Shown: piece by piece, positions 4,910-35,021 of the stretch
Position numbering within the stretch: the first letter of the stretch is position 1
How the letters are laid out: each line of letters begins with the position of its first letter
From: an uncultured Clostridia bacterium
Lineage (GTDB): Bacteria > Bacillota > Clostridia > TANB77 > CAG-508
DNA: 38,427 nt
NCBI GenBank assembly: GCA_948528155.1
Contig: CAOSZT010000002.1
Span: 1-38,427 of the forward strand
Direction: 5' to 3'
Program-made: the position numbers and the translations under genes
Notes under the pieces: generated by a model
The model's database searches: none
Told to the model about the DNA's origin: nothing
What the model saw: only the letters and a program-made list of their open reading frames with translations

Positions 4910-5917
4910 ATGGAGTTAGAAAATGCAACTGTAATTGATTTTGGAGATGTAGAATTACTAGCCACCAAAAAAGAATTATATATGGGATATAACAATGAAG
5001 CTAAGTTTAGAATAAATTGGTGTAGATTAAAAAATAAACCAGATGAATTAATATGCTTAAATGAAGAGATTGATAAATTATCAGAAGAAATTAAAAAAAA
5101 GAATATACCAATAATTAACATAGGAAGAATAATTGAAAAGCAATTTGCAGAGATATTAGAAAAAGAACTCAATAGCTTTATAGGAAAAAATATTAATAAT
5201 ATTTCTTATTTCTTTCAAAAACAAGAACGTGTAAACGCAGATGGGGAGAAATATTATACCAATCCAGATTTTTTAGATATATCAGACATTGGAATAGATT
5301 ATCTTAAAGAAAAGGCTGATATAAACCATAAAGCAAGAGTATATACATCATCTGTTTATTATGAAGAAATAAATCATTCTAAGCTTAAATATAGAGCTTC
5401 TTATTATAGCTCCGAATTTAGTGCAATAGAAGTTGATATGAGAAAACAAGAAATATTAACTCAACCAGGATTCATTATGAATCAAATATATAGTGATGTT
5501 AGTTTATGCAAAATTCTAGCATACAAACAATATGAATTAGGAATAACACCACCATTTTATAATGAAGTTGCAAAAATTAATCAGTTTTTAAAAGATAAAA
5601 AGACAGTTACAGTAATATTAGCAGATGATAGAGAAGTCAAAACAAAAGCGAATATAACTGATATTATGGATTTCTATAATGGTGTGTTTATCTTAAAAAA
5701 AGATTTGTTTGATATACCTTTTAATGAAGATAATTTGGAGTTAAGAAATATAAATAATATAAAAGCTATAAGACACGGAAAAACAGAAATTGAAATAGAT
5801 ACAAGAAATTTAAAACCAGTGAAATTACAGCTTGATGACATTATTCAAAATGATAATAAAGGGATAATCTGTAATATTCAAAATGAAGAAATAGAGGAAT
5901 TAGAAAATGAATGTTAG
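4910..5917 (+). CDS. hypothetical protein (335 aa)
   Basis: GGAGGGG RBS, long ORF, acidic C-terminus. No motif recognised. Confidence 0.7.
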   Translation: MELENATVIDFGDVELLATKKELYMGYNNEAKFRINWCRLKNKPDELICLNEEIDKLSEEIKKKNIPIINIGRIIEKQFAEILEKELNSFIGKNINNISYFFQKQERVNADGEKYYTNPDFLDISDIGIDYLKEKADINHKARVYTSSVYYEEINHSKLKYRASYYSSEFSAIEVDMRKQEILTQPGFIMNQIYSDVSLCKILAYKQYELGITPPFYNEVAKINQFLKDKKTVTVILADDREVKTKANITDIMDFYNGVFILKKDLFDIPFNEDNLELRNINNIKAIRHGKTEIEIDTRNLKPVKLQLDDIIQNDNKGIICNIQNEEIEELENEC

Positions 5918-6797
5918 AAAAGAACAAGAAATAAAAAATGTTATAAGTCATATTGAAGAAGCAGTTTGGAATGGAAGGCATAATGATTCAAGAGGGTATG
6001 TGATTGATTTAAGTAATATAAATAACAAGATTGAAATATCAGCAGATATTATAGAACCAGTACACGAATCTTTTACAACAGAGCCACATTTTAAAATAGG
6101 AACAGAGCCAGGAAATATGGAACAGGCTATTAGTAAATATATAGAGATGAAAAAACCTTATATTTTTAATCTTATAGAATATAACAACTTATTAAAATTA
6201 CCAGAAGAAACACAAAAAATGTTTATAAGTAATTTATTAAAAATTGAAACGAAACTTGAAAATATAAAGAATAATGGGATTGGTGCTAATAGTTTAAGAG
6301 TTCAATTATTTAAAAAGGAAACTGAAAAAGAAAAATTATATACAGAGAAACAAAATATAGAAAATGAATATATAGAAATATCTAAAAAGAAAGAGCAAAA
6401 TATTAAAGATATTAATAAATATGTAGAAAAACTAAAAAGAAATAATAATTTATTTAGTCCTATAAGCATTATTAATAGAGTATTTTCAAAGCAAGAAATT
6501 AAAGATCAAAACAAGTTTTATAAAAATGAAGCTGTAAGATTAGAGAAAGAAAATATTAAAAATACCGAATTAATATTTGAAAAGATGTTTTACAAGAATG
6601 ACTTAACTAAAAAGATTAATAAAGTTGAAAAAGAAGTTCAGGAATTAAGAAAACAATACGAATTAGAAAATAAAGAACAAGTAAAAGAATCAGATATATT
6701 AAAAGAAAAAAATATGTTATTCAAAGTTTTCAATATAGATGTTGAAAACATAAATCTTAAAGAAAGGGAAATAGAGGAGCAAGAGGAAAGTGAGTAA
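5907..6797 (+). CDS. hypothetical coiled-coil protein (296 aa)
   Basis: Overlaps the upstream stop by 11 nt. GAGGAA RBS. The K/E-rich C-terminal half has heptad character. Confidence 0.65.
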   Translation: MNVRKEQEIKNVISHIEEAVWNGRHNDSRGYVIDLSNINNKIEISADIIEPVHESFTTEPHFKIGTEPGNMEQAISKYIEMKKPYIFNLIEYNNLLKLPEETQKMFISNLLKIETKLENIKNNGIGANSLRVQLFKKETEKEKLYTEKQNIENEYIEISKKKEQNIKDINKYVEKLKRNNNLFSPISIINRVFSKQEIKDQNKFYKNEAVRLEKENIKNTELIFEKMFYKNDLTKKINKVEKEVQELRKQYELENKEQVKESDILKEKNMLFKVFNIDVENINLKEREIEEQEESE

Positions 6798-6803
6798 TAC
6801 TAT

Positions 6804-7634
6804 ATGTGCCAGGTTGATACATATTTAAAAGAACTAAAAAACAGATTTAATATGATTAATCCGAAAGAATATTATTTAAGTTATTCAGGAGGAAAAGATA
6901 GCCATTTATTATATTGGTTTATAAAGGAATATTTAAAAAATAACGATATAGCAATTATTGGAGTAGATACAAGATTGGAACATCAAGAAATTCTAAAAAG
7001 AATCAATAATAATTCTGATAAAGTTTTATATCCAGAGTTAGAACCATTTGAAATAAAAGAAAAATATGGAATACCTTGCTTTTCAAAATGGCAAGATGAG
7101 ATGATATATCGTTATCAAAAAGGATCTCGTAGACCATATCTTATAGAAAGGATAACAGGAATACATAAAGATACAGGAGAAAAAATAATTGGTAGATTTA
7201 AACTAAATAATACAGCAAAGAAATTATTATTAAATGAACAACTACATAAAGTTAGTCCAAAATGTTGCGAATATCTAAAGAAAAAACCACTTAGAGAATA
7301 TGAAAAAGCTACTAATAAAAAAGCAATTTTAGGAGTTAGAGGAGATGAAGGTACTTTAAGGAAACAACAGTACACAAGTTGCTTTACAAAAAATGGGAAA
7401 TTTACACCTATATTTGATTTAAGTGATGAACTTTTAAACCAAATATATAGTAAATATAATATAGAATTGCCAAAAATATATAAATATTTACAAAGAACAG
7501 GTTGTATGGGGTGTCCTTATGGAAGTTACAGAGGAGATACACAAAAAGAATTAGAATTAGTAGGAAAAGAACAAAGAAAATTGATATATGAATTATTTAA
7601 AGAAAGTTATGAGGTTTTAAAAATAAATCCTTAA
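6804..7634 (+). CDS. PAPS-reductase-like PP-loop ATP pyrophosphatase family protein
   Basis: PP-loop YLSYSGGKDSHLL near the N-terminus and a C-terminal Cys cluster RTGCMGCPYG, as in the PAPS reductase / DndC-like superfamily. Confidence 0.75.
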   Translation: MCQVDTYLKELKNRFNMINPKEYYLSYSGGKDSHLLYWFIKEYLKNNDIAIIGVDTRLEHQEILKRINNNSDKVLYPELEPFEIKEKYGIPCFSKWQDEMIYRYQKGSRRPYLIERITGIHKDTGEKIIGRFKLNNTAKKLLLNEQLHKVSPKCCEYLKKKPLREYEKATNKKAILGVRGDEGTLRKQQYTSCFTKNGKFTPIFDLSDELLNQIYSKYNIELPKIYKYLQRTGCMGCPYGSYRGDTQKELELVGKEQRKLIYELFKESYEVLKINP

Positions 7635-7650
7635 ATTAAGAGGTAAAAAA

Positions 7651-8145
7651 GTGAAAGAGTTATTATTAAAATTAAAGGAATACATAAAAGAAATAATACT
7701 TAATAAAGATGAAGAAAAAAGAGAAAATCAAGAACTAACAGGAAATATAATTAGAAATAAAGTAAGTAAAATTAACTTATCTGAAAATTACGATTTTAAT
7801 AGATTAAGATATGATTATGGGATTAGATTAAAAAATGATAGCATAGTAAAAGTAAAAAGTAATCAATTAATTATTAATGAAGAAGGTTTATTATATTTCT
7901 TAGATGAACAAAACAATGAAGAATTAGAAGTTGGTAAGATTGAAGATTATTTATATGAATTTGATATATTTAAGCAGGAATGGAAAAAAGCAGACATTAT
8001 TAGCATATTAGTAAATTTGGATTTTAGTGTAAAAAGACTAAAAGAAGCAGATAAAATGATAATAGAAAATAGAAATATAAACTTCTATTCTAATATTTGT
8101 AATAACAATTTTGAAATAAAAGGAGTAGAAGTATATGAAAGATAA
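7651..8145 (+). CDS. hypothetical protein (164 aa, GTG start)
   Basis: AGAGGT RBS 6 nt upstream of the GTG. Confidence 0.6.
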   Translation: MKELLLKLKEYIKEIILNKDEEKRENQELTGNIIRNKVSKINLSENYDFNRLRYDYGIRLKNDSIVKVKSNQLIINEEGLLYFLDEQNNEELEVGKIEDYLYEFDIFKQEWKKADIISILVNLDFSVKRLKEADKMIIENRNINFYSNICNNNFEIKGVEVYER

Positions 8146-8494
8146 TGATTTGACAATAGAAAATATAAAAAAACAAGTAGATGGCAGAAATTTAGAAGAT
8201 GTTAAATTAAAAGATATGGTTGAGATATTAAACAAACTAAAAGAAGATCTAAACAAAACAGATTTACAAGAAACGAAAACATTAGAAGAATGTAATAGTG
8301 TTGTATTTAATCCTTTAATGGAAGAATATATGGGATATAGAAAAGCCTATATACAAAATGCTATTAATAAACAAGAATTTGAACATTTAGTATTAGATTA
8401 TATAAAACAAGATCAATTTAAAGATATTTATGAAAAAGCATTAATAATAAATGAAAAAGCAGTATTGAATGAAAGCGAGGAATTATCAAAATGA
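8135..8494 (+). CDS. hypothetical protein (119 aa)
   Basis: AAGGAG RBS. 11 nt overlap with the upstream gene. Confidence 0.6.
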   Translation: MKDNDLTIENIKKQVDGRNLEDVKLKDMVEILNKLKEDLNKTDLQETKTLEECNSVVFNPLMEEYMGYRKAYIQNAINKQEFEHLVLDYIKQDQFKDIYEKALIINEKAVLNESEELSK

Positions 8495-20924: not shown

Positions 20925-20945
20925 AAGAGAAGAGGTACAAAAGAT

Positions 20946-21521: not shown

Positions 21522-22654
21522 GTGAAAAAGTTCAATATAGTGCTATAGTAAAAGCAAAAGTTAAAAATATAAATGATAAAGAAGAAAGTGATTTATATTT
21601 ATTATGCAGACAATATAGTGATGAAAAAAAAGTAAAAATTGAAAATGAAGGATTAGATATTATTTTAGATAAAGGTTCTTTTGAAGACTTAGTATTTTTG
21701 AATGATTGTGAAATTTTAGAATTTGAACATATCGCTAATGTCTATAGTATATCAGAACTTAAAGAATTTTGTGATAAATATAATTTAACTGATATTAGTA
21801 AATGTATGAAAGGAAAACAACTAGATTGCTGTGGACTATTAATAAATGAGTATTTAGAGCCTTTAGGTTATGAAGAAGAGTTAGAAGACTATGAGATTGA
21901 ATATAATAAGACTGTTTCAAGACAAATAAGAGATGAAAAAAAATACCAAGCAAAGGGAGAAATAATACAAGGTTTATCAGAAGAAGAAATATACGAAATA
22001 ATTGGTGGATATTTAAAATCACTTTTAGAAGAACAAGATATAAATACAGATATAGTAGATATTCAAATTATAGGATCAAGACATAAAGGAATTGCAAAAG
22101 ATACTTCAGACTTAGATGTATTAATAGAATTTAACAATGATAGATATGGGGAAGATAGCCTATTTAATAGTTTAAATGATGAAGAAAACAGATTAGAAAT
22201 TAATGGAATACCTGTTGACTTCAATCCGATTACTCCATCAAAATCTGGAACAATAGATGAATGGCTACAAAGAAATTATAATTATGATAAGTACAAAGAA
22301 AATATGAAAGAATATGCAAGATATATTATTGATTGTTTAAAAGAAAAATTTAAAGATGAAATTAGTTATGTATATAAAATTACTTTTTTAAGAGATGAGA
22401 AGAATGATAGATATACTGTTTCTTTGGCAATAGATATAGATAATAATGGAAATAAAAATCAAATAAATTTTATTTCTGCTAATAAATTTTATAAAATGAA
22501 TCACAATGAGCAAGTAAAATATATTGGGAATTTTTATAATGCGTCTATCATAGGAAAAAGAAAAGAAGAGTTTGGATATGATGAAGCAAAAAAAGATTTT
22601 TTACTAATGTGTGATTTTAATTATACAAGAGATAAAGAAGAGGAGGAATTATAA
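21518..22654 (+). CDS. nucleotidyltransferase-domain protein (minimal pol-beta-fold NTase core embedded in a 378-aa protein)
   Basis: IIGSRHKGIAKDTSDLDVLIEF ... PVDFNPI fits the G-S-x(9-13)-D-x-D plus third acidic residue signature. ATGA overlap with the upstream gene. Confidence 0.6.
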   Translation: MSEKVQYSAIVKAKVKNINDKEESDLYLLCRQYSDEKKVKIENEGLDIILDKGSFEDLVFLNDCEILEFEHIANVYSISELKEFCDKYNLTDISKCMKGKQLDCCGLLINEYLEPLGYEEELEDYEIEYNKTVSRQIRDEKKYQAKGEIIQGLSEEEIYEIIGGYLKSLLEEQDINTDIVDIQIIGSRHKGIAKDTSDLDVLIEFNNDRYGEDSLFNSLNDEENRLEINGIPVDFNPITPSKSGTIDEWLQRNYNYDKYKENMKEYARYIIDCLKEKFKDEISYVYKITFLRDEKNDRYTVSLAIDIDNNGNKNQINFISANKFYKMNHNEQVKYIGNFYNASIIGKRKEEFGYDEAKKDFLLMCDFNYTRDKEEEEL

Positions 22655-23992
22655 ATGGAGAATGTAAATAATGAAAATATCAAGCTTCTTTTTTATGAAG
22701 GAATAAATTTTTTACAATTCCAAATTGAATTACTTGCAGAGAAAAATGAAAATTTAAAAAATTATACATATATTCAATATATTGAAAAAAATACACCACT
22801 AATAGTAAATGAAACAATTACAAAGATAATAAATAAAGATGATTTTACAGAAAAAGTTACAAAACTGGCAAATATATTTACTGATATAAAAGATTATATG
22901 CAGTTAAAAGTAAAAGAGATTGAAAACAGTAAATTGTATATAACGAAAGAACTTCAAGATGTTTTTACAGACTATACAAATATGTTATTTAATAATTTAG
23001 ATAGTTTTGATTTACACGAAAGCTTTAAAGGTTGGACTGAAGATGGCACAATTTATAATACAAGAGCAGAAGAACGTATAATTTCTTCTCATAGAGCAGG
23101 AACAGAAACGTTATTATTAAATCACTTTGCAGAGAATTTAGATAAGTTTACTTGGCAACTTGCAGATTTATTAGATGAATTTTTGCAACTAACAAAAGAC
23201 AATAATAGAGAAGAAAAACCAGAACTTAATAAAGAAATTATGACTAACTTAATAAAAATGAAAGACGATTTTAAAGTAGGAGATAAAAAAACATTTTTAT
23301 ACAAAAATAGTAATGGCAATATATGGGAACTTACTATAAGAAGAGAAGAAGAAATATATGAACCTTTTAAATTTGCAATAGTAGGAACAAAAGTAGGTAC
23401 AAATCAAACTTGGAGTAGAAGATATACAGATATAAAAAAAGCACTTTTACATATAGTAAATGATTTTAATGAAAATGCTAATATAAAAAATAGATATAGT
23501 AATATAGAAGAATACTTAAACGAAAAAATTAAATTAATATATAAATACGAAGAAAATGGCAATTACTATTATGAAGATGAAAATGAGAATTTATATTGTG
23601 AAAATGGAAATCAAAATGTAGGCGAAATATGTTTAATGTATTGCACAAAAGAGTATGGAGAGCCTATATGCGAGGTTGAAAATTTAGAAAAATATGAATT
23701 AGTTAATAATCCAAAAAATAATCCTAATTATGAAAGAAAAAAAGCTAACGAATATAATTATATGATGTTAGATAGATTAAGATCTGATTGTGATTACTTT
23801 TTAGGCAATGGAAATGGATTTTTAGGTCATCTTTATTACAAAGATATAGATAAACATATAGAAGAAATGAAGAAAATATATGAAGCTTTTTCAAATGAAG
23901 AAAAACCAGAATGGATAAGCTTAGAGGATATAAATAATTATAAAGAAAGAATGTGTGAAATGTTAGAAAAGAATGAGGAAGAAGAAATATGA
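22655..23992 (+). CDS. hypothetical protein (445 aa) with a conserved-looking C-terminal module
   Basis: GAGGAGG RBS. C-terminal YNYMMLDRLRSDCDYFLGNGNGFLGHLYYKDIDKHIEEMKKIY..KPEWIS resembles a module I recall from conjugative-element polyvalent proteins. Name not verifiable here. Confidence 0.65.
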   Translation: MENVNNENIKLLFYEGINFLQFQIELLAEKNENLKNYTYIQYIEKNTPLIVNETITKIINKDDFTEKVTKLANIFTDIKDYMQLKVKEIENSKLYITKELQDVFTDYTNMLFNNLDSFDLHESFKGWTEDGTIYNTRAEERIISSHRAGTETLLLNHFAENLDKFTWQLADLLDEFLQLTKDNNREEKPELNKEIMTNLIKMKDDFKVGDKKTFLYKNSNGNIWELTIRREEEIYEPFKFAIVGTKVGTNQTWSRRYTDIKKALLHIVNDFNENANIKNRYSNIEEYLNEKIKLIYKYEENGNYYYEDENENLYCENGNQNVGEICLMYCTKEYGEPICEVENLEKYELVNNPKNNPNYERKKANEYNYMMLDRLRSDCDYFLGNGNGFLGHLYYKDIDKHIEEMKKIYEAFSNEEKPEWISLEDINNYKERMCEMLEKNEEEEI

Positions 23993-24945
23993 GTAATAAA
24001 AATTATAAATATGATGGAACAGATACTTTCCCTAAAAAAATAAGAACATCAGATGGTTATATTTTAACAAAAGTAAATGATGGAATATATGAAAATAATT
24101 TTTTACCACAATATAGATATAAAAGAGGAGAGGTTACTCTGATTCCTGATGTAGAAAAATATGAAGTTATAATTGAAAAGAATGAATATAGATTTTATAT
24201 CTATGATTGGATACTAGGACAACAGTTAATAACCATAGACACGGATAAGAAAAAAAGTAAAATAGATGGCTTTAATATATATGGTCAATGCTATTCATTG
24301 GGAGATAAATGGAAAAAAATAACTTCAGCTATGATAAAAAGGACTACACAAAGAATTGGCTATCTTTATGACGATTTTATAGAAAAGCATTTTGTAAATC
24401 CTAATTACCATTTGTATAAAAAACTATTGTTTAAATCAAATGACTATAACGAATGTATAAAATTTTTAGCTGATTATGGAGCTGAAAATCTTAATAATAG
24501 TATATATAAGGGCGAAGAATATGACAAAATATATAAAGAATATTATAAATCCTATTTGGATATTCCAGAAAACAAAATTGGAGAGATACTAAAAGATGGA
24601 ACTGTAAGAAAAGAGTATTTTCAAGAAGGGCATATATATAAAAATATTTGTAATTTTTATAGACAAGATGGAATTTGTTACATTGCAGAAGGACAAGCAG
24701 ATAAAATAGATAAAAATAGCAAACTAGGAGAAGACTATGAAACATATCAAACAATATATGAAAAAGTAAAAGAAGCTTATGAAAAAGCAGGAATCAATGA
24801 AAAGAAATACAAGCTTAAAGATTTTGTAGCAACAATATTTAATGATTTGAATTGGCAATCAGTTGAAGCTTTAACAATGGATTCAATTGAAGCATTAGAT
24901 GATGAATATTTTTTGGATTATGAAGAAGAGCTTGAAAAGGAGTAA
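23989..24945 (+). CDS. hypothetical protein (318 aa)
   Basis: ATGA overlap with the upstream gene. GAGGAA RBS. Confidence 0.65.
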   Translation: MSNKNYKYDGTDTFPKKIRTSDGYILTKVNDGIYENNFLPQYRYKRGEVTLIPDVEKYEVIIEKNEYRFYIYDWILGQQLITIDTDKKKSKIDGFNIYGQCYSLGDKWKKITSAMIKRTTQRIGYLYDDFIEKHFVNPNYHLYKKLLFKSNDYNECIKFLADYGAENLNNSIYKGEEYDKIYKEYYKSYLDIPENKIGEILKDGTVRKEYFQEGHIYKNICNFYRQDGICYIAEGQADKIDKNSKLGEDYETYQTIYEKVKEAYEKAGINEKKYKLKDFVATIFNDLNWQSVEALTMDSIEALDDEYFLDYEEELEKE

Positions 24946-24956
24946 TAAAATATATT

Positions 24957-25166
24957 ATGAAAAAGGAAAGTATAAAAGAGAAAATAGAAAACTGTTTATT
25001 TGTATTAGATTTTGATACACAAAGAATGAGTACAGGTGGAAGGGAATCTTATAATGAATTAAAAAAAATTGTGGTGGATTTATATAATGATAATATTAGA
25101 ATGATAGATCAAATCAGAAGTTATGGAATAGAAAATGCTAAAAATGAGGAGAAGGAAGAAATATGA
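24957..25166 (+). CDS. hypothetical small protein (69 aa)
   Basis: ORF between coupled genes. AGGAG 14 nt upstream. Acidic tail. Confidence 0.5.
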   Translation: MKKESIKEKIENCLFVLDFDTQRMSTGGRESYNELKKIVVDLYNDNIRMIDQIRSYGIENAKNEEKEEI

Positions 25167-25954
25167 GTTACGAAATAGTAAAAAGTGTAGTAATAAAAGA
25201 TGGAAAGGTTTATACAAGACAAGAAAGTAATAATGTATCTCCAAAAGATTTTTGTAGTTGTGAGAATCCTGGTCTAACTAAACTATTAAAAAATAATGGA
25301 ACGATTGCAATATATAAATTATTAATAGAATTGAGTTTAGAAGGTTCAGTACATTTTAGTGTATCTGGAAATAAAATTGTAAATCAATTAAATCAAATCT
25401 CTAACAGTTTATATAATGATGAAAATTATAAAAAGATAAAAAATAAAGTTGATGAATTAGAGAACAAAATATGGAAATGTGAAGATGAAAAAGAAAAAGA
25501 CACTATAAGGGAAGAATTAGGTAGTAAAAGGCAAATTTTAGAAACATATATAGATCAGTATGTTAGAAGTTGCTTTAATGAAAAAATAAAAATTCCACAA
25601 TCAATAAAACAAGAACTAAATAATGTAAAAGAGATGTATGAAGAAGATTTAGAAAATGACGAAGAAGATGTATTTGGTGGAACAGAGGATAGTTATGCTA
25701 ATGAAATGTTAGGACAACATTTATATGATGTTTTTAATCAAGAAAACATAGAGAAAATTATGGCATTAAACAACAATATGTATACAGTATTAGATATAAA
25801 TTATAGAAACAAGAGTTATGAAGAAATACGAGATCAAATAACAGATAAATTAATAGAAAAGACAACTTATAATATTGATAATTTAGGTAGTTTTATAGAG
25901 GTAATAGAAGATGAAAAAGAGAAAGGAGAAGTTGATGAGCAAGATATTCTTTAA
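25163..25954 (+). CDS. hypothetical protein (263 aa)
   Basis: ATGA overlap. GAGGAGAAGGA RBS. Confidence 0.65.
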   Translation: MSYEIVKSVVIKDGKVYTRQESNNVSPKDFCSCENPGLTKLLKNNGTIAIYKLLIELSLEGSVHFSVSGNKIVNQLNQISNSLYNDENYKKIKNKVDELENKIWKCEDEKEKDTIREELGSKRQILETYIDQYVRSCFNEKIKIPQSIKQELNNVKEMYEEDLENDEEDVFGGTEDSYANEMLGQHLYDVFNQENIEKIMALNNNMYTVLDINYRNKSYEEIRDQITDKLIEKTTYNIDNLGSFIEVIEDEKEKGEVDEQDIL

Positions 25955-26411
25955 AAGATTATTAGAAGAAACATTAATAGCAAATGAAATGGAAATTTCA
26001 GAACAAGAAAAAGAAGAGTTTATAAATAATTGTGAAATTTTGACATCAGATATTTATTTTTACTATAACTTATTATTAAATACAAAAGATAGAGTTGGGA
26101 TTATATATTTAAAAGAGAAATATCCTAATAATTTTATTGTAAATGGACTATTAGAAAGTCAAATAAAGTATTTTGAGTTAAATAAGAAAGATAATGAAGA
26201 TTTATATTTCAAATTTTGTGATATATTCATAAGTTTTTATGGATTGGATCATAAAGATGTAAAAGAAAAATTGGAAAATATGACAAAAAGAGAAACTAGA
26301 AATAGATTTTGTGAGTGTAATAAAGAACGAATCAAAGAGTATGAAGAAAAATATTCAAATTTAGTAAAAGAATATAAAATGAAAGAGCAAGAGGAAATTA
26401 CTTTAATATAA
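25935..26411 (+). CDS. hypothetical protein (158 aa from ATG 25935; ORF track start 25911)
   Basis: AAGGAGAAG lies 4 nt upstream of ATG 25935, whereas 25911 has no RBS. Confidence 0.6.
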   Translation: MSKIFFKRLLEETLIANEMEISEQEKEEFINNCEILTSDIYFYYNLLLNTKDRVGIIYLKEKYPNNFIVNGLLESQIKYFELNKKDNEDLYFKFCDIFISFYGLDHKDVKEKLENMTKRETRNRFCECNKERIKEYEEKYSNLVKEYKMKEQEEITLI

Positions 26412-26858: not shown

Positions 26859-26861
26859 ATA

Positions 26862-26931: not shown

Positions 26932-26949
26932 TATATCATAGACAAATTG

Positions 26950-26983
26950 GAGAAAGAAGATTTTATTTCTTTCTCTATTTTTT
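26950..26983 (+). terminator. leader hairpin plus T-tract between promoter cassette 3 and the SpoVG-like gene
   Basis: GAGAAAGAA / TTCTTTCTC 9 bp stem, 8 nt loop, then TATTTTTT. A further TTGCAAAA sits at 26985..26992, just before the RBS. Confidence 0.5.
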
Positions 26984-27010
26984 GTTGCAAAAAAAGTAGG
27001 AGGTTTTAAT

Positions 27011-27637
27011 ATGAGTATTAAAGTTAAGTCATTAGGACTTGTAAAAAATGAAGAAATCGAAATAAAGGCAATAGCTTCTTTAGAAGCAGATGGAATAAGA
27101 ATTGATGGAATCAAAATAAACGAAAGTCAAAATGGTAATTTATATTTACAATTTCCAGAAAGAAAATTTAAAAAGAAAGATAGTGAAGAATTAATTACTA
27201 CTAAATTAATGTTTGCAGATAATGAAGTATTTAAGAAGATTAGTGAAACATTAATTAAAGCTTATCAAGATAAGAAAGAAAAAGGAGAATTTGAAATACA
27301 AGAAATAGAAACTTCAAAACAAGGAGTATCAATATCACAAGCTAATCCATTACAAGATCAAAGTAAAAAAACAAAAGCAATGGTTAGTATAGATGTAAAC
27401 GGAATCCACTTAAAAGATATAAGATTAAATGAAAATAATCAAGGGAATTTATATTTGCAATTTCCTAATAAAAAAACAAAAGAAGAAGAATATAAGGATA
27501 TGTTTTATCCAACTAATACAGATCTTAGAAAGCAATTAACAGATGAAGCTATTAATATTTATCAAGAAAAATTGATGGCAAAGGAATTTGATGAATCAGC
27601 AAAAGCTCAAGAAATGGACGAGGGAGAACGAGAATAA
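27011..27637 (+). CDS. tandem SpoVG-domain nucleic-acid-binding protein
   Basis: Two SpoVG-like units: IEIKAIASLEADGIRIDGIKINESQNGNLYLQFPERK... and KAMVSIDVNGIHLKDIRLNENNQGNLYLQFPNKK..YKDMFYPTNTDLRKQLTDEAINIY. Compare B. subtilis SpoVG ..[41 protein letters not shown]..AV...Y, from memory. Confidence 0.65.
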   Translation: MSIKVKSLGLVKNEEIEIKAIASLEADGIRIDGIKINESQNGNLYLQFPERKFKKKDSEELITTKLMFADNEVFKKISETLIKAYQDKKEKGEFEIQEIETSKQGVSISQANPLQDQSKKTKAMVSIDVNGIHLKDIRLNENNQGNLYLQFPNKKTKEEEYKDMFYPTNTDLRKQLTDEAINIYQEKLMAKEFDESAKAQEMDEGERE

Positions 27638-27726
27638 TGACTAATTCTACAAAAATAAAAAATGCAATTGACTTCACAACTACAAGTTTTGGAAATGTAG
27701 ATAAAATAATAGAGGAAGGACAATAG

Positions 27727-27927
27727 ATGAAAAAAGAAATAAACATAGTAGTACAGATATATCCAAAAGAAAAAGTAGTATATATGGCAGAGGAATCATC
27801 ATCAGGAGCGAGTTATAAATTTGATAATATAAATGATTTAACTGAAAGTATAAGTTTTTATTTGAATAATTATTATAAAAATGAAATTGAAGGAACTAAA
27901 GAGGATATTGAACAACAAGAAGTATAA
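27727..27927 (+). CDS. hypothetical small protein (66 aa)
   Basis: GAGGAAGGA RBS. Confidence 0.5.
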   Translation: MKKEINIVVQIYPKEKVVYMAEESSSGASYKFDNINDLTESISFYLNNYYKNEIEGTKEDIEQQEV

Positions 27928-27954
27928 AAAGAATAAAGAGAGGAATAGAGATTT

Positions 27955-28356
27955 ATGAGAAGATTAGAATTATTACAAAGTCCTTTTTATAAGCAAAAAT
28001 TTAAAAATATATATCAGTTACTTTTTAAAGCTGATTTAGAAGATATTACGGATTGTTCATATTGGCATATAAAAAATCCTAGCATAGTTGAAAAAAATCA
28101 ACCATTATGGATTATTGTAGAAAGCAAAATTATAAACAAAAGGATATGGATTACTAAAAATTGTGGAGAACTTAAAATAACAACTGCTAGACTAGATTTA
28201 GATATAGATAGTAGAGAATATCACGAAAGTTATGAAAGAAAAAAATTTAAAAATCAGAGTGAAATGAGTAGTTATTTAGAACAATTATTAGAACCTTGCA
28301 TTAAAGGATATGAACAAGAATTAAAAGAGTGGGAAATGGAAGAGGAAAGAGAATAA
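27955..28356 (+). CDS. hypothetical protein (133 aa)
   Basis: GAGGAA RBS. Acidic tail. Confidence 0.6.
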   Translation: MRRLELLQSPFYKQKFKNIYQLLFKADLEDITDCSYWHIKNPSIVEKNQPLWIIVESKIINKRIWITKNCGELKITTARLDLDIDSREYHESYERKKFKNQSEMSSYLEQLLEPCIKGYEQELKEWEMEEERE

Positions 28357-28397
28357 TTTATATGATTATAAATTGAGATATAAAGGAAGAAAATTAG

Positions 28398-29642
28398 ATG
28401 AATAATGATATAAAAATATCAAGAGTGATAGAAGATAAAGAACTATTAAGAGAATTGAAAATAAGTGAAAAAGATGTATTTAAAGCAATAAAATGTGGAA
28501 TAGAACAAATAGATGAATTACAAAAAATAATAGATGAAGAAAAGGAAAAAGGAACAAGTTTTCAAGAATTAAGCCACAAATTAAAAGGGCAAAATGAAAA
28601 TTTTAATAAAGATGGAATCTATTCACACAATTATTTTGATTTAAACTATGAATCATTATTAGTAACTATATACCAAAATACACAAGAGAATAGATTTGAA
28701 GTTGATAAAAGTGATGTATATATTTATCCAGATAATATTAGTAAAGTTTCAACAGAGGAATTGTTTGTTTTAGATTTAAGAAAGCCAATCAATATAGAGA
28801 AGTTTCAAGAATATATTACTGAAGATATAGAAAAAGTATTATTAAAGAACTATTATTCTGATATTAAAGATATAAGTAATATATACATAATTGCTTATGC
28901 TTTAAATACTAAAAGTAATTTTGCAAACAAATATATAAGAAAAGGAAAACTAACAGAAGAAAATTTTCAAAAAGTATTTAAAGAAGGAAAAGATATATTT
29001 AACACAAAAGAATGTTCAGAGTTTAAAATAGCAATGTTTAATGGAGAAAATAATCAATTTATATGTGAATATTCTTTTGATGGTTACAATTTTGAAAAAC
29101 AAATTAGCAATAATATATTTGAAGCACCTAAATTAGTAAGCTGTTTAACAGATAATGAATTATTAAATAAGAGAAGGAATAAGGAAAAATTTTGCACTAA
29201 ACAAATAATAGATAAATGTTTATTAAATGATTATAAAAGTATAAATGAAATACCAGATATAGAAATCCATACAAAGATTAGTTCTAATAAATATATACAA
29301 GAAAAAGAAGTGGAATTTGAAGATGGAATTTTAATACAAAATGGAGTTATAAATGCACTAACAACATTAGACGCAGGTCAAATAGAGAAAAATTTTGGAT
29401 TAAAAGAATTGAATTATGATGAGGATTATTATGACGCTTATTTAGATTATGATAGTAAAAATGATAGTTGTGAAATAACGATTGTAGCTGTTACAGATGA
29501 TAGTAGGCATTATTATACATATTTACCTAAATCAGAAGAAAAAGAAATGTTAAGAAAATCATTAGAAGAATATGTTAAATCAATTGAAGGAAAAAATTTA
29601 AAAGATTTATTTGAAGAAATAGAAGAAATAGAGCAAGAATAA
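28398..29642 (+). CDS. hypothetical protein (414 aa)
   Basis: AAGGAAG RBS, long ORF, acidic tail. Confidence 0.7.
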   Translation: MNNDIKISRVIEDKELLRELKISEKDVFKAIKCGIEQIDELQKIIDEEKEKGTSFQELSHKLKGQNENFNKDGIYSHNYFDLNYESLLVTIYQNTQENRFEVDKSDVYIYPDNISKVSTEELFVLDLRKPINIEKFQEYITEDIEKVLLKNYYSDIKDISNIYIIAYALNTKSNFANKYIRKGKLTEENFQKVFKEGKDIFNTKECSEFKIAMFNGENNQFICEYSFDGYNFEKQISNNIFEAPKLVSCLTDNELLNKRRNKEKFCTKQIIDKCLLNDYKSINEIPDIEIHTKISSNKYIQEKEVEFEDGILIQNGVINALTTLDAGQIEKNFGLKELNYDEDYYDAYLDYDSKNDSCEITIVAVTDDSRHYYTYLPKSEEKEMLRKSLEEYVKSIEGKNLKDLFEEIEEIEQE

Positions 29643-29677
29643 AGACAACACAAAAAATGAACTATAAGGAGATACAA

Positions 29678-30487
29678 ATGGAGAAAGATATTAAAGAACA
29701 AATTAATATAATTAATGCAAAAGAAGATATAAAAAAATTAGATCTGCTATATAGAAAAATATTAGATACTGATTTTAGTAATGAAAAATCAATTAGTTTA
29801 AAAGAGGATATTGCAAGTCAAATAGATAGAAAAATAGTTGAACTAATGAAAGAATATCATATATCCAATGAAGAATATTCAGAATTAATCTTTGAAAATA
29901 GAGATTATAAAAAAATAGAGAAAAGAACACAGCAAATGGCAGAAGATAGATACAATATGATATGGGAAAATTGCTCTTCAAAAGAAATTGTAGATATATT
30001 AAGAAACAGCTATTCTTATACTGATGAAGAAATAATAGAAGAATTTGTTGATGAAGAAGTTCGAGAAGAAATAGAAAACTATTTATTAGAATTAACAGAA
30101 AGAGAAGAAGCTCCTAAAAATGTAATGTTAGATAATGGATATACTTTCGTATTTGAAAATGGATATTATTTTTCTAAAATGAAAGAGATTTGTGAATATA
30201 GTCAAGATTTTGCAAGGATTCCAAATGGAAAAGAATTTGCAATTATCACTAATGCAGAAGTTACTAAAGAAGCTTTTTTAGTAAAGTGCGATCATAATAT
30301 AGAAATTGTATTTAATTTTCTAAATCAAAATTCAAACGAAATGGAAACCTACAAAACTAATGTATTTAATATGAACAAAATCAATTCTAAAGAAGAATTA
30401 ATAGAAAAAATGAAAGAAAATTTAGAAAAATTTGAAAAAGAATACAATAAATTAGAACAAGACGAAGAAAATATGGAGGTTGAATAA
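29678..30487 (+). CDS. hypothetical protein (269 aa from ATG 29678; ORF track start 29657)
   Basis: AAGGAG at 29666..29671 is 6 nt upstream of ATG 29678. ATG 29657 lacks an RBS. Confidence 0.65.
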   Translation: MEKDIKEQINIINAKEDIKKLDLLYRKILDTDFSNEKSISLKEDIASQIDRKIVELMKEYHISNEEYSELIFENRDYKKIEKRTQQMAEDRYNMIWENCSSKEIVDILRNSYSYTDEEIIEEFVDEEVREEIENYLLELTEREEAPKNVMLDNGYTFVFENGYYFSKMKEICEYSQDFARIPNGKEFAIITNAEVTKEAFLVKCDHNIEIVFNFLNQNSNEMETYKTNVFNMNKINSKEELIEKMKENLEKFEKEYNKLEQDEENMEVE

Positions 30488-30500
30488 CCAGGAGGAGTAA

Positions 30501-31340
30501 ATGGGATCTGATTATATAAAAAATTTAAGAATAGATATAAAAAATAATATGATGACTGCAGATATTGCAGATATGAAAAGCTATCCTATTACTTTTGATA
30601 ATGTAGAACTTTATAAGAAGAAAGAAAGCTTTGAAGAAAAATATAGTGCGTTAATATTTGATATTGTTTCAGGTATGCTACATTTTACAAATAGCTCTCA
30701 CAAACTTGCTAAGTTAGGTTTTGGAGAAAAAACAGCTGTTGAACTTAAAAATTACTATGATGATTATAGAGTATTAGGTTCAATCGGTGTTTATAAAAAA
30801 TACGAGAATAAAATAAATCAGATATTAAATAATGGAATTGAGGGAAGAAAGCTTGAAATTATTCCATCAGAAGTGGAACTACACTATAAAATGGAAACTT
30901 TACCTAACAGGAGTTTTAAAGATATAAGCAAATTATTTTATTCCCTTGAATCAATTACAGAGAATAATAGTCTATCAATTAGAGAAAAGAAACATTTGTA
31001 TGAAGAAATGATAAATAAAGAATTAAGTGAAGAAGATAGGAAAAAACCTTTATTTATTCAGTATAACAAAGATAATCCAGACATAATTGTTTCTGTATAT
31101 CCAATTATAAAAAAGAATACATACAAAGATGATGTATTTTTAACCTATTATTTTGATATTAAAAACTTGAAAACTAATTATGAAAAAATTTATGACGATA
31201 TTGGAATGATGATTAGTTATATTTTAGATGATGAATTAATGACTAAACAGGTTTTGCACGGAATGGAGCAACAATTTATAGAAGATGAAAGAAAAGAAAA
31301 AAATAAATATATTGAGGAAGAAAATTGTGAATTACTTTAA
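30501..31340 (+). CDS. hypothetical protein (279 aa)
   Basis: AGGAGG RBS. Confidence 0.7.
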   Translation: MGSDYIKNLRIDIKNNMMTADIADMKSYPITFDNVELYKKKESFEEKYSALIFDIVSGMLHFTNSSHKLAKLGFGEKTAVELKNYYDDYRVLGSIGVYKKYENKINQILNNGIEGRKLEIIPSEVELHYKMETLPNRSFKDISKLFYSLESITENNSLSIREKKHLYEEMINKELSEEDRKKPLFIQYNKDNPDIIVSVYPIIKKNTYKDDVFLTYYFDIKNLKTNYEKIYDDIGMMISYILDDELMTKQVLHGMEQQFIEDERKEKNKYIEEENCELL

Positions 31341-31357
31341 AACAGGAGGAAACAAAT

Positions 31358-31996
31358 ATGGATTTACATTATGAAATTGAAAAATATGACTTTACATTAG
31401 AAGAAAATTTACAACAATGGGAAACAATAAAAAAATTAAAACCAAAAGAAATGAATGAGTTAATATTCCAAAATATGATACAACAAGCAAGATTAGATAA
31501 CAAGATGATAAGTAGTTTTGACAACAATAATGTATTACAATGTAAAAATTTAATATATATGGGAGCAAATAAACAATATTTATATGATTATGTTTCTGGA
31601 ATTGGTGGTCGTAAATTAACAATGGTACAAGGTTGGTTACTAGAAGATTTGCATAATATACGAAAAGAAAAGCATTACCCATATGTATATGATAGGGAAA
31701 TTTCGGATATAAGAATTATTAATAAAAATGAATATAAAACATTACTTGATAAATTTGAGAAAAAGGAAGAATTTTCGTTTGATGAAAAAGATTGTTTCTT
31801 ATTAGAAGAATATGAAGATGGTAGAAAAATGTATATTGCAATAGATAATTCTACAAGCAATATGTGGGTAGAAGAATTTTTAGAAAAAGAAACAGCTGAA
31901 AGATATTTAAAAGGAGAAAATATTGATAAATTAAGAGAAGAAATGATTTCAGAAGATAAAGCTTCAGAAACAGAAGAAATAGGAGAGCAAGAATAA
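31358..31996 (+). CDS. hypothetical protein (212 aa)
   Basis: AGGAGG RBS. Its stop directly abuts the methyltransferase start. Confidence 0.7.
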   Translation: MDLHYEIEKYDFTLEENLQQWETIKKLKPKEMNELIFQNMIQQARLDNKMISSFDNNNVLQCKNLIYMGANKQYLYDYVSGIGGRKLTMVQGWLLEDLHNIRKEKHYPYVYDREISDIRIINKNEYKTLLDKFEKKEEFSFDEKDCFLLEEYEDGRKMYIAIDNSTSNMWVEEFLEKETAERYLKGENIDKLREEMISEDKASETEEIGEQE

Positions 31997-32755: not shown

Positions 32756-33539
32756 AATTATAGAAAAAGAATCTTTTAGAATTGAAGAAGCTATTACTTA
32801 TCCTTTTGTAATAACACCTGTTGTAATGATAAAAGATGGAAGGGAAATATATATAAGAAATAAAAGATATGGAGATAAAGAGTATGAAAGAACAATGAAT
32901 ATACTAAAAATTAGTGATGGAAAATATACAGTTATGTATGGTCTATATGATGATCCATTTGATATGCTTCAAGATATAGCACAAACAAAGAAAGTAATAA
33001 AAAAAGATTTTAAAGAAATATTTGATATTAGTGAATCAGATGGAGATTTTACAGATTTTGTAGGAAGTACATATCCTCTTTATTCAATTTTTAATTATAG
33101 AATTTATGATAATGTGCTATTACAAGATATAAAGGGAATTGTAGAACTGATAAATAGAAAGGAATGGAATATGGCAAAATCTGAAATTGAAGATAAAAGA
33201 AGTAAATATAAAGAAATAATTAAAAATAGAGAAGATAATACCTTAGGATTAGATTTTTATAAATTTTATGAATTAATTGATAAACAATTGGAAGGTGTAA
33301 AACAGAGTTCTAACTATAAAATTTTTAAAAAAGATGTTGAAATATTAAAAGATGCTAATACTGGTACAGGCTTATCTTCTATTACAGCAAATAAGTGGTT
33401 AAAACATATATGTAATTTAAGTGAAGTTGAACTTAAAGAATATGTAGATAATTATAAACAAGGACTGCTAGATCCATATTTTTATGAAAAACAAAATCAA
33501 TCTCTTGAGGAAATGGAGAATGAAGAAATAGAACAATAA
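32749..33539 (+). CDS. hypothetical protein, paralogue A (263 aa from ATG 32749; ORF track start 32709)
   Basis: AAGGAG RBS. ATGA overlap with the methyltransferase stop. Shares MIEIIEKESF, VMIKDGREIYIRNKR, GDFTDFVG, SIFNYRIYD and IKGIVELINRKEWNMAKSEI with ORF 33571. Confidence 0.65.
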
Positions 33540-33570: not shown

Positions 33571-34086
33571 ATGATTGATTTTATTGAGAAAGAACCTTTT
33601 GAAACTTATGATAGTTGGAATGATTGTAAAAGTTTACTGTACCCTAATGTAATGGTAAAAGATGGGAAAGAATATTTTATTAAGAATAGACGAGAAACAG
33701 ACTACGATTTTGATGTTATTAGAGGCGTTTCAAAATTAATAGATCAACTAAAAGAAAATAATGGTATTTATGCTACGTTTTATGGTTGTAATATACAAAT
33801 TACAGATTTTCTTAATCTCATAATAGAACATCATTATTCTTTTTGTAAAGATAAAGTATTTGATGAAAATAGAGAAGGAAATTTTATAGATTTTCACGGA
33901 AATCTTAATGAAATATCATCAGTATTTATGTATAGAATGTATGATAGTCAATTAATAGAAGAAATAAAAGAAATTGTGGAACTTATTAATAATAAAGAAT
34001 GGGAAAAAGCAGAAAGTAAAATTCAGATAATAGAAGAGTGTTATAAACAAATAGAACAAGAAGAAGGAGAAGAAATGGAACAATAA
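33571..34086 (+). CDS. hypothetical protein, paralogue B (171 aa)
   Basis: GGAGG RBS. MIDFIEKEPF, VMVKDGKEYFIKNRR, GNFIDFHG, SVFMYRMYD and IKEIVELINNKEWEKAESKI align with ORF 32749. Confidence 0.65.
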   Translation: MIDFIEKEPFETYDSWNDCKSLLYPNVMVKDGKEYFIKNRRETDYDFDVIRGVSKLIDQLKENNGIYATFYGCNIQITDFLNLIIEHHYSFCKDKVFDENREGNFIDFHGNLNEISSVFMYRMYDSQLIEEIKEIVELINNKEWEKAESKIQIIEECYKQIEQEEGEEMEQ

Positions 34087-34109
34087 AGTAGTATAAAGAA
34101 GGTAATTGT

Positions 34110-34655
34110 ATGGAAGATAAAGATAAAAGAAATCAAGAACTTTTTATAGTAGGACAGGCTTTTTTACATACAGGAATAAGAGAAGTCGAAGATATTTTAG
34201 AAAGATACATAACAACAGCTACATATTATAACGATTCTTATACAGTTAGTTTATTAAAAAAAGCACAACAAGATATATCAAAAATTAAAGATACAATGGA
34301 TAAAGATAGAGAAGAAGCTTTAAAACAAAAAGAACCTCATATATTTGTATATTCAGGAAAAATTATAAAAGTGTATGATACAACAACTAAATGTGAATTT
34401 TGTGTAAAAAAAGATTATATAAATGACGAATTAGTTGAAATACAGGGGATATGCTTAGAATTTGAAAAAAGTCAAATTACAGAAATCGATCAAGAACAAT
34501 GTCAAATGGTAGAAGAAGTATATTGCGAAAGTGATAATAAATTATACCAATTGGCAATTAAGGAATTTAACAATAGAGATTATGGAAAAGTATTATATGA
34601 AAATATCAAGAATAGCTTTCTAGTTCTAAAAAAAGAGGAAGTTTTAGAAAGATAA
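34110..34655 (+). CDS. hypothetical protein (181 aa)
   Basis: GAAGGT RBS. Confidence 0.6.
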   Translation: MEDKDKRNQELFIVGQAFLHTGIREVEDILERYITTATYYNDSYTVSLLKKAQQDISKIKDTMDKDREEALKQKEPHIFVYSGKIIKVYDTTTKCEFCVKKDYINDELVEIQGICLEFEKSQITEIDQEQCQMVEEVYCESDNKLYQLAIKEFNNRDYGKVLYENIKNSFLVLKKEEVLER

Positions 34656-34685
34656 TTATATTTTATTATTTGGGAGGAAATAACA

Positions 34686-35021
34686 ATGAAAGAAATAAAT
34701 CAAGAAATAGTGAATAAAGGTAAAAATGCTGTTCAAAAATTACTAAAAGATATATTTAAGAATTATGATACAACAGTAAAATCACGTTTAGATAGAATAG
34801 AATATAAAAAATCAATTTACAATAGTAAAGCGTGGTTAGAGAAAGAAATTGATAATTTAGGTTATTCAGATTTATTAAGTTGTATGCTTGATATAGAAGA
34901 TGAATTTGAAGGTATAAAAGATTTTATTGATGAAAAACTAAATCAAATAGATATATTTAAACAGCAATATATGGATATACAGGAAGATAAAACGGAAGAG
35001 GAAGAGGAAGAAGAAAGATAA
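34686..35021 (+). CDS. hypothetical protein (111 aa) ending in TEEEEEEER
   Basis: GGGAGG RBS. Last gene of the array. Confidence 0.6.
   Translation: MKEINQEIVNKGKNAVQKLLKDIFKNYDTTVKSRLDRIEYKKSIYNSKAWLEKEIDNLGYSDLLSCMLDIEDEFEGIKDFIDEKLNQIDIFKQQYMDIQEDKTEEEEEEER

Follow-up and report, generated by a model that had tools for sequence, protein, structure and literature searches.

Glutamate-rich C-terminal tails on the accessory proteins of a clostridial integrative and conjugative element: a candidate shared recognition tag

The 38,427 nt stretch of DNA analysed here (the window) is assigned from its sequence to the accessory part of an integrative and conjugative element (ICE) of an uncultured gut Clostridium, and this part carries anti-restriction and establishment genes. 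A Tyr integrase gene (37036..38307) is found at the end of the element, adjoining host DNA, and in the relatives L102-L105 (L numbers denote the loci used for comparison) a conjugative type IV secretion system (T4SS) module lies directly upstream of the orthologous restriction-modification (R-M) and accessory region. The module encodes a VirD4-type coupling protein, the VirB6-like TrbL_4, pilin-like proteins, a VirB4-type ATPase and an M23 peptidase; this composition is read from the relatives, which the window's contig joins only from the M23 peptidase onward (M23 peptidase, 106-aa and 393-aa genes, in the same order). The assignment to an ICE follows from the module in the relatives and from the same gene order on the window's contig. 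The relaxase and oriT lie outside all stretches compared. Identical or near-identical copies of the element occur in gut metagenome-assembled genomes and metagenomes, the closest named relative being uncultured Clostridium sp. The window has a GC content of 23-25%, and its purine-rich + strand carries all of the real genes.

Domains of the anti-restriction and polyvalent-protein repertoire are encoded at 19902 (PF08401 and PF18818), 22655 (PF18824) and 9374 (PF18789), all above the gathering score. The proteins that carry them are among a larger set of soluble proteins encoded between 4910 and 35021 (the island) that end in a short acidic tail: ArdC, DarA_C, LPD11, a nucleotidyltransferase and a SpoVG-domain protein, plus about 20 orphans. 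The tailed genes are an anti-restriction and establishment module, the same domains of which are fused elsewhere into giant polyvalent proteins.

Re-translation of the island gave 39 open reading frames (ORFs) on the + strand, among them both parts of an interrupted sortase gene and the ORFs at 19205 and 19647. With the tail defined as the last eight residues, at least three Asp or Glu residues are present in 28 of the 39 ORFs and at least four in 25 (Table 1). An earlier note on this DNA had counted 28 of 37; its 28 acidic ends are confirmed and the tails that it quoted are all present as written, but the total is 39. Its count for the two arrays that start at 19205 and 27011 is likewise right in the number of acidic ends (20) and wrong in the total, which is 22 rather than 21, as 19205..19678 (..KQTKNERI, not acidic) is a second exception beside the methyltransferase. 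A single 234-aa protein of L097 corresponds in its N-terminal part to this ORF and in its C-terminal part to 19647..19895, so that the two ORFs are probably a split gene; the L097 protein itself has a basic end (..RGKNKM).

Internal eight-residue windows of the same proteins, of which 14% have at least three Asp or Glu residues, predict only 5.6 tails at this threshold and 1.1 at the threshold of four. Counts as high as those observed did not occur in any of 200,000 Poisson-binomial draws (maxima of 16 and 7, respectively). The signal is due to Glu and not to Asp, is poor in Lys and stops sharply at position -8/-9: over positions -1 to -8 Glu has a frequency of 0.28-0.54, whereas at -9, -10 and -11 the values are down to 0.21, 0.18 and 0.13, close to the 0.12 across the interiors of the tailed proteins. 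Glu makes up 52% of the tail residues (4.3 times the internal value), with Asp at 0.64, Lys at 0.35, Gly at 0.64 and Phe/Tyr at about 0.1 times their internal values, and Lys and Arg are depleted at positions -3 to -6. Acidic runs of at least five in eight residues are almost confined to C-termini, and no island protein has four or more Lys or Arg residues in its last eight. Nine of the window's tails consist of an acidic run followed by a terminal Ile, Leu or Phe. None of the 28 tailed proteins has a transmembrane (TM) segment and all are predicted to be soluble, while all four proteins with an N-terminal hydrophobic segment, the helix-turn-helix (HTH) regulator and the methyltransferase are tail-less, in agreement with the earlier observation that secreted, membrane and regulatory proteins lack tails.

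Table 1. Acidic tails and annotated genes of the window. SD, Shine-Dalgarno sequence of the next gene; D/E and K/R, numbers of such residues in the last eight.
Feature	Position	Strand	Protein or source	Remarks
IEELENEC	5891..5914	+	335-aa 4910..5917	4 D/E, 0 K/R; next SD inside
IEEQEESE	6771..6794	+	296-aa 5907..6797	5 D/E; SD inside
NESEELSK	8468..8491	+	119-aa 8135..8494	3 D/E; SD inside
QEELDEPE	8980..9003	+	171-aa 8491..9006	5 D/E; 45-nt gap, no tail SD, no small ORF
ENADELEQ	9322..9345	+	98-aa 9052..9348	4 D/E; 25-nt gap, SD outside
EEGEIENE	10352..10375	+	DarA_C 9374..10378	5 D/E; SD inside
EREENEQD	11553..11576	+	404-aa 10365..11579	5 D/E; SD partly inside
EEEERIQF	12633..12656	+	144-aa 12225..12659	4 D/E; 71-nt gap, no SD, no small ORF
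TEEKELGE	19869..19892	+	82-aa 19647..19895	4 D/E; SD inside; ORF may be 3' half of split gene
EEEMEEAI	20898..20921	+	ArdC-N + MPTase-PolyVal 19902..20924	SD outside; orthologues acidic with terminal I/L
IEDEEESI	21495..21518	+	191-aa 20946..21521	5 D/E; SD inside
RDKEEEEL	22628..22651	+	nucleotidyltransferase fusion 21518..22654	new terminus after 110-aa extension
EKNEEEEI	23966..23989	+	LPD11 22655..23992	EKSEEEEI in L100, EKSEEKEI in L011
YEEELEKE	24919..24942	+	318-aa 23989..24945	YEEDLEKE in L100
KNEEKEEI	25140..25163	+	69-aa 24957..25166	4 D/E; SD inside
EVDEQDIL	25928..25951	+	263-aa 25163..25954	4 D/E; next SD upstream of tail
EQEEITLI (weak)	26385..26408	+	166-aa 25911..26411	3 D/E; 96-nt gap, last gene of array
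EMDEGERE	27611..27634	+	SpoVG-domain 27011..27637	EIDEGERE in L100, L116, L117; 29-aa ORF at stop
EDIEQQEV	27901..27924	+	66-aa 27727..27927	4 D/E; SD outside
WEMEEERE	28330..28353	+	133-aa 27955..28356	5 D/E; 41-nt gap
EIEEIEQE	29616..29639	+	414-aa 28398..29642	5 D/E; tail SD not found
DEENMEVE	30461..30484	+	276-aa 29657..30487	QDEENIEV in L100
EEENCELL	31314..31337	+	279-aa 30501..31340	VEENYESI in L100
TEEIGEQE	31970..31993	+	212-aa 31358..31996	EEEIGEQE in L100
MENEEIEQ	33513..33536	+	276-aa 32709..33539	4 D/E; 31-nt gap
EEGEEMEQ	34060..34083	+	171-aa 33571..34086	5 D/E; SD outside
KKEEVLER (weak)	34629..34652	+	181-aa 34110..34655	3 D/E + 3 K/R, net charge 0
EEEEEEER	34995..35018	+	111-aa 34686..35021	last gene of operon; 106-nt gap
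DarA_C (PF18789)	9374..10378	+	Pfam	
ArdC-N + MPTase-PolyVal, polyvalent-type zincin peptidase (PF08401 + PF18818)	19902..20924	+	Pfam	
Nucleotidyltransferase	21518..22654	+	Pfam	
LPD11 (PF18824)	22655..23992	+	Pfam	
SpoVG	27011..27637	+	Pfam	
N6/N4 methyltransferase	31997	+	Pfam	
PAPS-reductase-like protein	6804	+	Pfam	
Thioester/SpaA adhesin	15698	+	Pfam	
Sortase, split	11566/11882	+	Pfam	
HTH regulator	26508	+	Pfam	
Sigma-r4/HTH protein	35128	+	Pfam	

The tails are rare in genes of similar setting. Host chromosomal genes beyond the integrase, from two assemblies of the same element, include no acidic tail in 11, and genes of the element and its close relatives that lie outside the arrays on the same strand and at the same GC content (the tail end of the T4SS, type I R-M, cargo genes and window flanks) have at least three Asp or Glu residues in ten of 54 cases. 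Compared with these 54 genes, the island is enriched with an odds ratio of 11 at the threshold of three (Fisher, p 4e-7) and 17.5 at the threshold of four (p 2e-8). The curated conjugative plasmid pCW3 of C. perfringens (GC content 27.6%) has five acidic tails in 46 genes. Among 1252 ORFs that surround the ArdC genes of 79 other genomes the proportions are 8.5% (at least three) and 1.9% (at least four), and for other ArdC loci below 40% GC they are 13 and 3%, respectively. The tails are repeated in the element's relatives, where L097, L100, L116 and L117 have acidic ends in 45 of 56 array genes compared with five of 39 other genes, and where the acidic set includes small genes without a counterpart in the window (..DCEEEEI, ..KSEEEI and ..EEEEREYEI); a fifth relative, L011, likewise has acidic ends on the few array genes covered. 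The proposal that the tails go beyond composition thus survived comparison with the host flank, with genes of the same family and with pCW3.

Acidity is retained in orthologues through changes of sequence. The ArdC orthologues (68-87% identity) end in ..EEEMEEAI, ..ENDLEEVI, ..KELEEII, ..EINEEII, ..EEEEDCL, ..DEEGLDL and ..DEGEDLEP, so that the acidity survives Glu/Asp swaps, indels and changes of neighbouring residues. Nine of nine orthologue pairs between the window and L100 (in which ArdC is 83% identical) keep at least three Asp or Glu residues. The operon-terminal 111-aa protein ends in ..TEEEEEEER, ..EIEEER or ..EREEEEER, with indels within the Glu run itself (..QEDEIEEER, ..QEDEREEEEER). 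In the SpoVG-domain protein the end ..E[MI]DEGERE is kept before four different downstream genes.

The clearest case is a natural experiment provided by the nucleotidyltransferase. Its C-termini in three relatives are ..NYDYNKYEEDMEELQ (with the end ..YEEDMEELQ, as in L100), ..YEEELEE and ..EDEEEEDEL. The window protein has a C-terminal extension of 110 residues; the stretch homologous to the relatives' ends (..NYNYDKYKENMKEYARY.., ..YKENMKEY..) is no longer acidic and the new terminus reads ..RDKEEEEL. The acidic character thus persists only at the end of the chain. AlphaFold models ArdC with a mean predicted local distance difference test score of 85 and places the tail at the end of the last helix (residues 298-339), where confidence is lower. 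The Pfam peptidase match stops at residue 302 of 340, so that the tail is outside the recognised domain. Taken together, the tail is very probably a real, selected and terminus-specific feature of these proteins.

Charged ends are also found around ArdC in more distant elements. Among ArdC homologues of less than 55% identity, 75 distinct tails include 30 that are acidic and 13 that are basic, compared with 6% acidic and 14% basic in the background, and one third have an [LMI][ESGT][LRMI] end compared with 2.8% of background ORFs. Ends of the latter kind (..ELSR, ..ELGR, ..GMSL, ..TLEL, ..GLEM) occur in Firmicutes, Bacteroidota and Proteobacteria; other distant homologues have Arg-rich tails in common with adjacent genes, such as ..VRKVRAR beside ..VRKNVRTR in L047. 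The charged tail is found at the far end only of the ArdC-bearing polypeptide, including fusions of 900-2300 residues, and giant polyvalent proteins have few internal acidic runs. Neighbouring genes share the type of tail: four adjacent proteins of L024 (Anthropogastromicrobium, GC 0.41) end in ..EEEELER, ..EEELER, ..EEEMEY and ..EEEELER, with codons that differ synonymously (TTG/TTA, AGA/CGA, GAA/GAG); neighbours at an Anaerostipes locus end in ..DLEIE, ..EELEI and ..EELEI, and those in L097 in ..EEEEDCL, ..EDEL and ..ENEL. In 58 loci outside the window's family, the ArdC tail and the tails of its three nearest genes on each side are correlated in net charge (Spearman 0.55, p 9e-6, with ORFs from a crude caller and no correction for shared ancestry). 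The correlation is 0.69 within GC 0.33-0.50 and 0.25, not significant, with more distant genes; the ArdC tail charge itself is not correlated with GC content, which is therefore no confounder. In many elements, tail charge is a feature of the immediate surroundings of ArdC.

At two of these loci a short hairpin lies 3' of each tail-bearing gene. In L024 it is AGCGTGTCCGAttCGGACACGCT, present four times (9784-9823, 11048-11080, 18184-18230 and 18852-18885), and in L021 it is ACTTCGGACCCgccGGGTCCGAAGT, present twice (10547-10590 and 11750-11790). The two L021 copies of tail codons plus hairpin have almost the same DNA sequence, as though the 3' ends of genes were swapped as units.

The nearest known counterpart is the E-block of Dot/Icm substrates, an internal block within the last ~20-30 residues, whereas the Glu run here occupies the extreme last eight. 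The likeness lies in a short, Glu-rich, low-pI C-terminal segment with few Lys residues on many unrelated soluble proteins beside a T4SS, and the composition of the 28 tails given above agrees with such a Glu-rich, net-acidic terminus. The setting differs in its Gram-positive host and VirD4-type coupling protein, and the carriers are anti-restriction and establishment proteins for bacterial recipients rather than effectors for eukaryotic hosts. The type IVB DotL/DotM/DotN (IcmSW) complex is absent from the Pfam list of the relatives' T4SS module (T4SS-DNA_transf/TraG-D_C, TrbL_4, T4SS_pilin, TraC-like/P-loop_TraG and Peptidase_M23), an absence that rests on precomputed hits in a module where several small proteins have none. 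In Dot/Icm, basic patches on DotM bind the low-pI Glu-rich tails, and net acidity is needed rather than Glu content only (PMC5802825). By analogy, the present tails may work alike, although they differ from the E-block in the type of secretion system.

An acidic C-terminal tip with a hydrophobic residue serves as a docking peptide for partner proteins in SSB (..DDDIPF) and in T7 gp2.5 and gp4, and ends such as ..EEEMEEAI, ..EEEEL and ..EEEEDCL resemble it. Those tips are single conserved motifs on one family, whereas here a degenerate Glu run is found on about 28 unrelated proteins, most of which end in Glu, Gln or Arg and not in a hydrophobic residue. Substrates of VirB/D4 systems have a positively charged, Arg-rich C-terminal transport signal (Vergunst et al., 2005, as cited in PMC8406263). 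That signal is similarly charge-based, degenerate and at the extreme C-terminus, with a VirD4-type reader, and Arg-rich ends of that kind are carried by ArdC homologues and their neighbours in many other elements; the charge in the ArdC neighbourhood of this element family is the opposite. Conjugative T4SSs are known to translocate plasmid-encoded maintenance proteins such as PsiB and SSB, and the F/pED208 'conjutome' of PsiB, SSB, ParB and others is delivered to recipients, for some proteins via C-terminal signals (PMC8406263, PMC11288057). These systems are Gram-negative, their signals are positive, hydrophobic or internal, and no uniform tail across a module has been described for them. Finally, it has been proposed that polyvalent proteins of phages and conjugative elements accompany the DNA into the target cell (Iyer et al., 2017, PMC5512222). 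The repertoire is the same as here (ArdC-N, MPTase-PolyVal, LPD11, DarA_C and nucleotidyltransferase), but in the window the domains are mostly on separate small proteins with a tail each; a term search of PMC5512222 returned no mention of an acidic terminal signature.

On the sequence evidence, the best reading of the tails is a shared recognition tag. The earlier note had suggested such a common tag, and its suggestion stands in so far as the signature is shared beyond composition and Shine-Dalgarno (SD) overlap and is under selection at the level of the protein and of the terminus; the T4SS coupling protein, a chaperone or protease and DNA mimicry are candidates for how the tag is read. Since selection acts on the protein and on its C-terminus, the tail would be one label per polypeptide, presumably read by a common partner. 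The leading candidate for this reader, to which we assign a probability of roughly 0.4, is the T4SS of the element: recognition of the polyanionic tail would fall to the VirD4-type coupling protein or to one of its binding partners, and the tailed proteins would be delivered from donor to recipient along with the transferred DNA. In the recipient, the delivered proteins could blunt restriction and other defences before the genes of the element are expressed. More speculatively, the poly-Glu tail may mimic single-stranded DNA (ssDNA) for the DNA-translocating coupling ATPase. The T4SS is preferred as the candidate because conjugative T4SSs translocate maintenance proteins and Dot/Icm uses Glu-rich tails, and also because homologous neighbourhoods carry VirB/D4-like Arg-rich ends and polyvalent proteins are proposed to travel with DNA. 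The full scheme is doubtful: the ICE would mark some 28 anti-defence and establishment proteins with a poly-Glu signal for a VirD4-type coupling protein, possibly as an ssDNA mimic, for injection before or with the DNA, and the Arg-rich or [LM]-x-[LR] ends in other elements would have the same purpose.

Several points weigh against the T4SS as the reader. A DotM-type receptor is not among the precomputed Pfam families listed for the relatives' T4SS genes, and the relaxase, the one certain T4SS substrate, lies beyond the stretches compared. The orphan methyltransferase and the PAPS-reductase-like protein are tail-less, although they would plausibly be useful in a recipient. The type of T4SS is a mixed predictor of the type of tail: L021 has a VirB4 of the same type as this element and has acidic tails, whereas in L018 and L053 the coupling protein and VirB4 are closely related (phmmer 1e-67 to 1e-98) and ArdC and its neighbours have no Glu-run tails. 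The approximately twofold enrichment of GAG codons in the tails (see below) also makes some pressure at the nucleotide level possible.

To our knowledge, the protein substrates of Gram-positive conjugative T4SSs and the signals by which they are recognised are essentially undefined. Full-text literature searches found no described protein substrates or signals for these systems; nor did they return any report of acidic tails at the ends of ICE, polyvalent or plasmid accessory proteins, or of a C-terminal signal in ArdC. A uniform tail on a whole module would be a directly testable candidate signal for a Gram-positive conjugative T4SS and would turn the open question of substrate choice in Gram-positive conjugation into a simple experiment. 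It could serve as a sequence marker for translocated anti-defence proteins in Firmicute ICEs, most of them without known domains, and as a short tag by which mating could bring engineered proteins into clostridia. If delivery by the T4SS is correct, protein delivery in conjugation might follow a general, element-specific code written in the type of C-terminal tail, which could also mark new anti-defence proteins. Should the T4SS not be the reader, the occurrence of one terminus-specific tag on about 28 unrelated proteins would still point to an unrecognised common partner in establishment.

The evidence for selection at the level of the protein and its terminus applies equally to a shared tag that is read by a partner other than the channel or that acts intrinsically, which is possible but not probable. 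The tail could be a solubility or anti-aggregation tail, an anti-degron (charged C-termini protect against proteases that recognise C-terminal degrons), a feature by which a common chaperone, or the ArdC metalloprotease, takes hold of the protein, or a polyanionic mimic of DNA or of the SSB tail that modulates binding to nucleic acids or competes for the host's DNA-binding proteins. The SSB/gp2.5-like form of nine window tails and of most ArdC orthologues would suit such roles, as would the presence of several carriers in nucleic-acid-binding families (ArdC-N, SpoVG) and the absence of tails from L018 and L053 despite their related T4SS. A generic stabiliser, however, would also be expected on R-M subunits, the methyltransferase, regulators and the cytosolic ATPases of the T4SS, where it is not found, and does not predict the Arg-rich tails on the homologous neighbourhood elsewhere, while DNA mimicry by about 28 unrelated proteins is unlikely.

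The tails could instead be evolutionary footprints, either (GAR)n microhomology joints for the shuffling, fusion and fission of cassettes or leftover acidic linkers of split polyvalent proteins. Gene content and domain architecture are indeed highly mosaic among the relatives, internal acidic runs at 21518 (aa 117-128) and 25163 (aa 157-171) lie near the ends of homologues as at fusion junctions, two L021 tails with their downstream hairpin are nearly identical in DNA, and L106 is a natural variant without the whole stretch between adhesin and methyltransferase. Footprints are nevertheless unlikely: no DNA-level repeat family is common to different gene ends in the window (DNA repeats at gene ends were rejected for this reason), the L024 motif is kept with synonymous differences and giant polyvalent proteins have few acidic runs in their interiors. 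The ancestral tail of the nucleotidyltransferase lost its acidity when it became internal and a new one is present at the new end, which requires selection on the terminus and not a passive relic.

A nucleotide-level translation signal, in which the last codons read as Glu by coincidence while serving the initiation or coupling of the next gene through an SD-like or GA-rich sequence, is very unlikely to account for the tails. The earlier note had put a part of the pattern down to SD overlap; the next SD lies inside only 12 of the 28 acidic tails, and so not within the last eight codons of every one. Most genes are tightly packed, and GAG accounts for 28% of Glu codons in the tails compared with 13% inside genes, irrespective of the distance to the next start. 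The enrichment persists on SD masking, as 16 of 26 island genes without an SD in their last eight codons still have acidic ends, including some followed by gaps of 41-106 nt without a small ORF and the operon-terminal gene. The SD-free examples named in the earlier note hold for the ends at 9006, 9348, 12659, 20924, 28356 and 35021; that at 27637 does not, as a 29-aa ORF (27637..27726, also called in the public assemblies of the element L001-L003, L005, L108 and L109) starts on the stop codon of the SpoVG-domain gene and its SD may lie inside the tail. Conversely, two tails that contain or overlap initiation signals are not acidic, namely that of the methyltransferase (..FKEKRND), although relatives place the start of the next gene within it, and that of 7651..8145 (..KGVEVYER), which has the next SD inside. 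GAR runs were not found in the non-coding leaders of operon-first genes and are therefore not a general requirement for initiation here. The purine tract is always in the GAR (Glu) frame and never reads as (AAG)n Lys or (AGA)n Arg, whereas a signal at the RNA level would give Lys or Arg readings in two of three frames; Lys, Gly and Arg-type purine codons are depleted. On this reading-frame argument and the comparison of leaders, a purine-run or CsrA-like RNA motif was rejected. Glu-to-Asp changes (GAA to GAT) are common in orthologues, and L024, with its GC content of 0.41, has similar tails with a hairpin between each and the next gene.

Pure composition or chance in an AT-rich, purine-skewed genome has practically no likelihood left. 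The low GC content, the strong coding-strand purine skew and the general acidity of the proteins (pI 4.2-5.7) would favour it, but it is refuted by the internal windows (5.6 predicted, 28 seen) and by the controls of matching strand and composition (0/11, 10/54 and 5/46).

Searches with the arrays and their proteins gave few matches. Megablast of the arrays against plasmid and phage collections returned none, a search of PHROGs with ten orphan tailed proteins returned one match only (of function unknown) and a PDB sequence search with four orphan tailed proteins returned none. Plasmid tblastn matches are almost all Gram-negative, and a scan of metagenome contigs for ArdC with low-complexity back-translated patterns gave one distant locus.

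In L106 (4468-5200) a natural variant has the adhesin almost directly before the methyltransferase, with two short genes in place of the stretch corresponding to approximately 19205-31996 of the window (18 tailed genes), so that most tailed genes are dispensable for persistence of the element. The host genes beyond the integrase in L106 and L107 encode a release factor, RNase J, YabP/Q and Rho. The element is integrated beside the peptide-chain release factor gene (L106 11972-18225; L107 10392-16638), and the adjoining host genes (RNase J-like, YabP, YabQ, DivIC, Rho) point to a spore-forming member of the Clostridia with a GC content of ~28%.

Some genes of the window are interrupted or end unusually. 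The sortase is frameshifted (11566-12148), giving a 111-aa N-terminal ORF with a TM segment and an 88-aa ORF with the Sortase domain, and is split likewise in public assemblies. The adhesin with thioester and SpaA domains (15698-19090) ends in ..KKLPRTGE, with the stop codon right after the LPxTG motif; the following 19091-19204 holds only a hairpin, and no frame there encodes a hydrophobic segment or a basic anchor. This ending is kept in relatives, as ..LPRTGE before the stop in L011, L100, L116 and L117 and as ..LPKTGF in L097. The type I restriction gene hsdR is present as two overlapping ORFs of 622 and 507 aa (window 1-563; L091 6325-9664) and is a single 1112-aa gene in L102-L104. ORF 141..563 of the window corresponds to the last part of the second fragment, and the exact protein has no database record because it is the end of this longer fragment.

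A repeat of ~110 nt occurs four times (3706-3814, 15531-15639, 26857-26965 and 36644-36752), each copy just upstream of the start of an operon (3865, 15698, 27011 and 36783). Its invariant core is ACATAAnnTTTTGCAAAAACnTTGCAAAATnCTGCAGTATAC, with two TTGCAAAA half-sites followed by a -10-like box, and in copies 1-3 by a terminator-like leader hairpin (GAAAGC..GCTTTCTTTTTT), which a scan found at 26948-26977. The position upstream of four operons, together with the core and hairpin, suggests a shared promoter or operator, with possible control of the accessory operons by antitermination.

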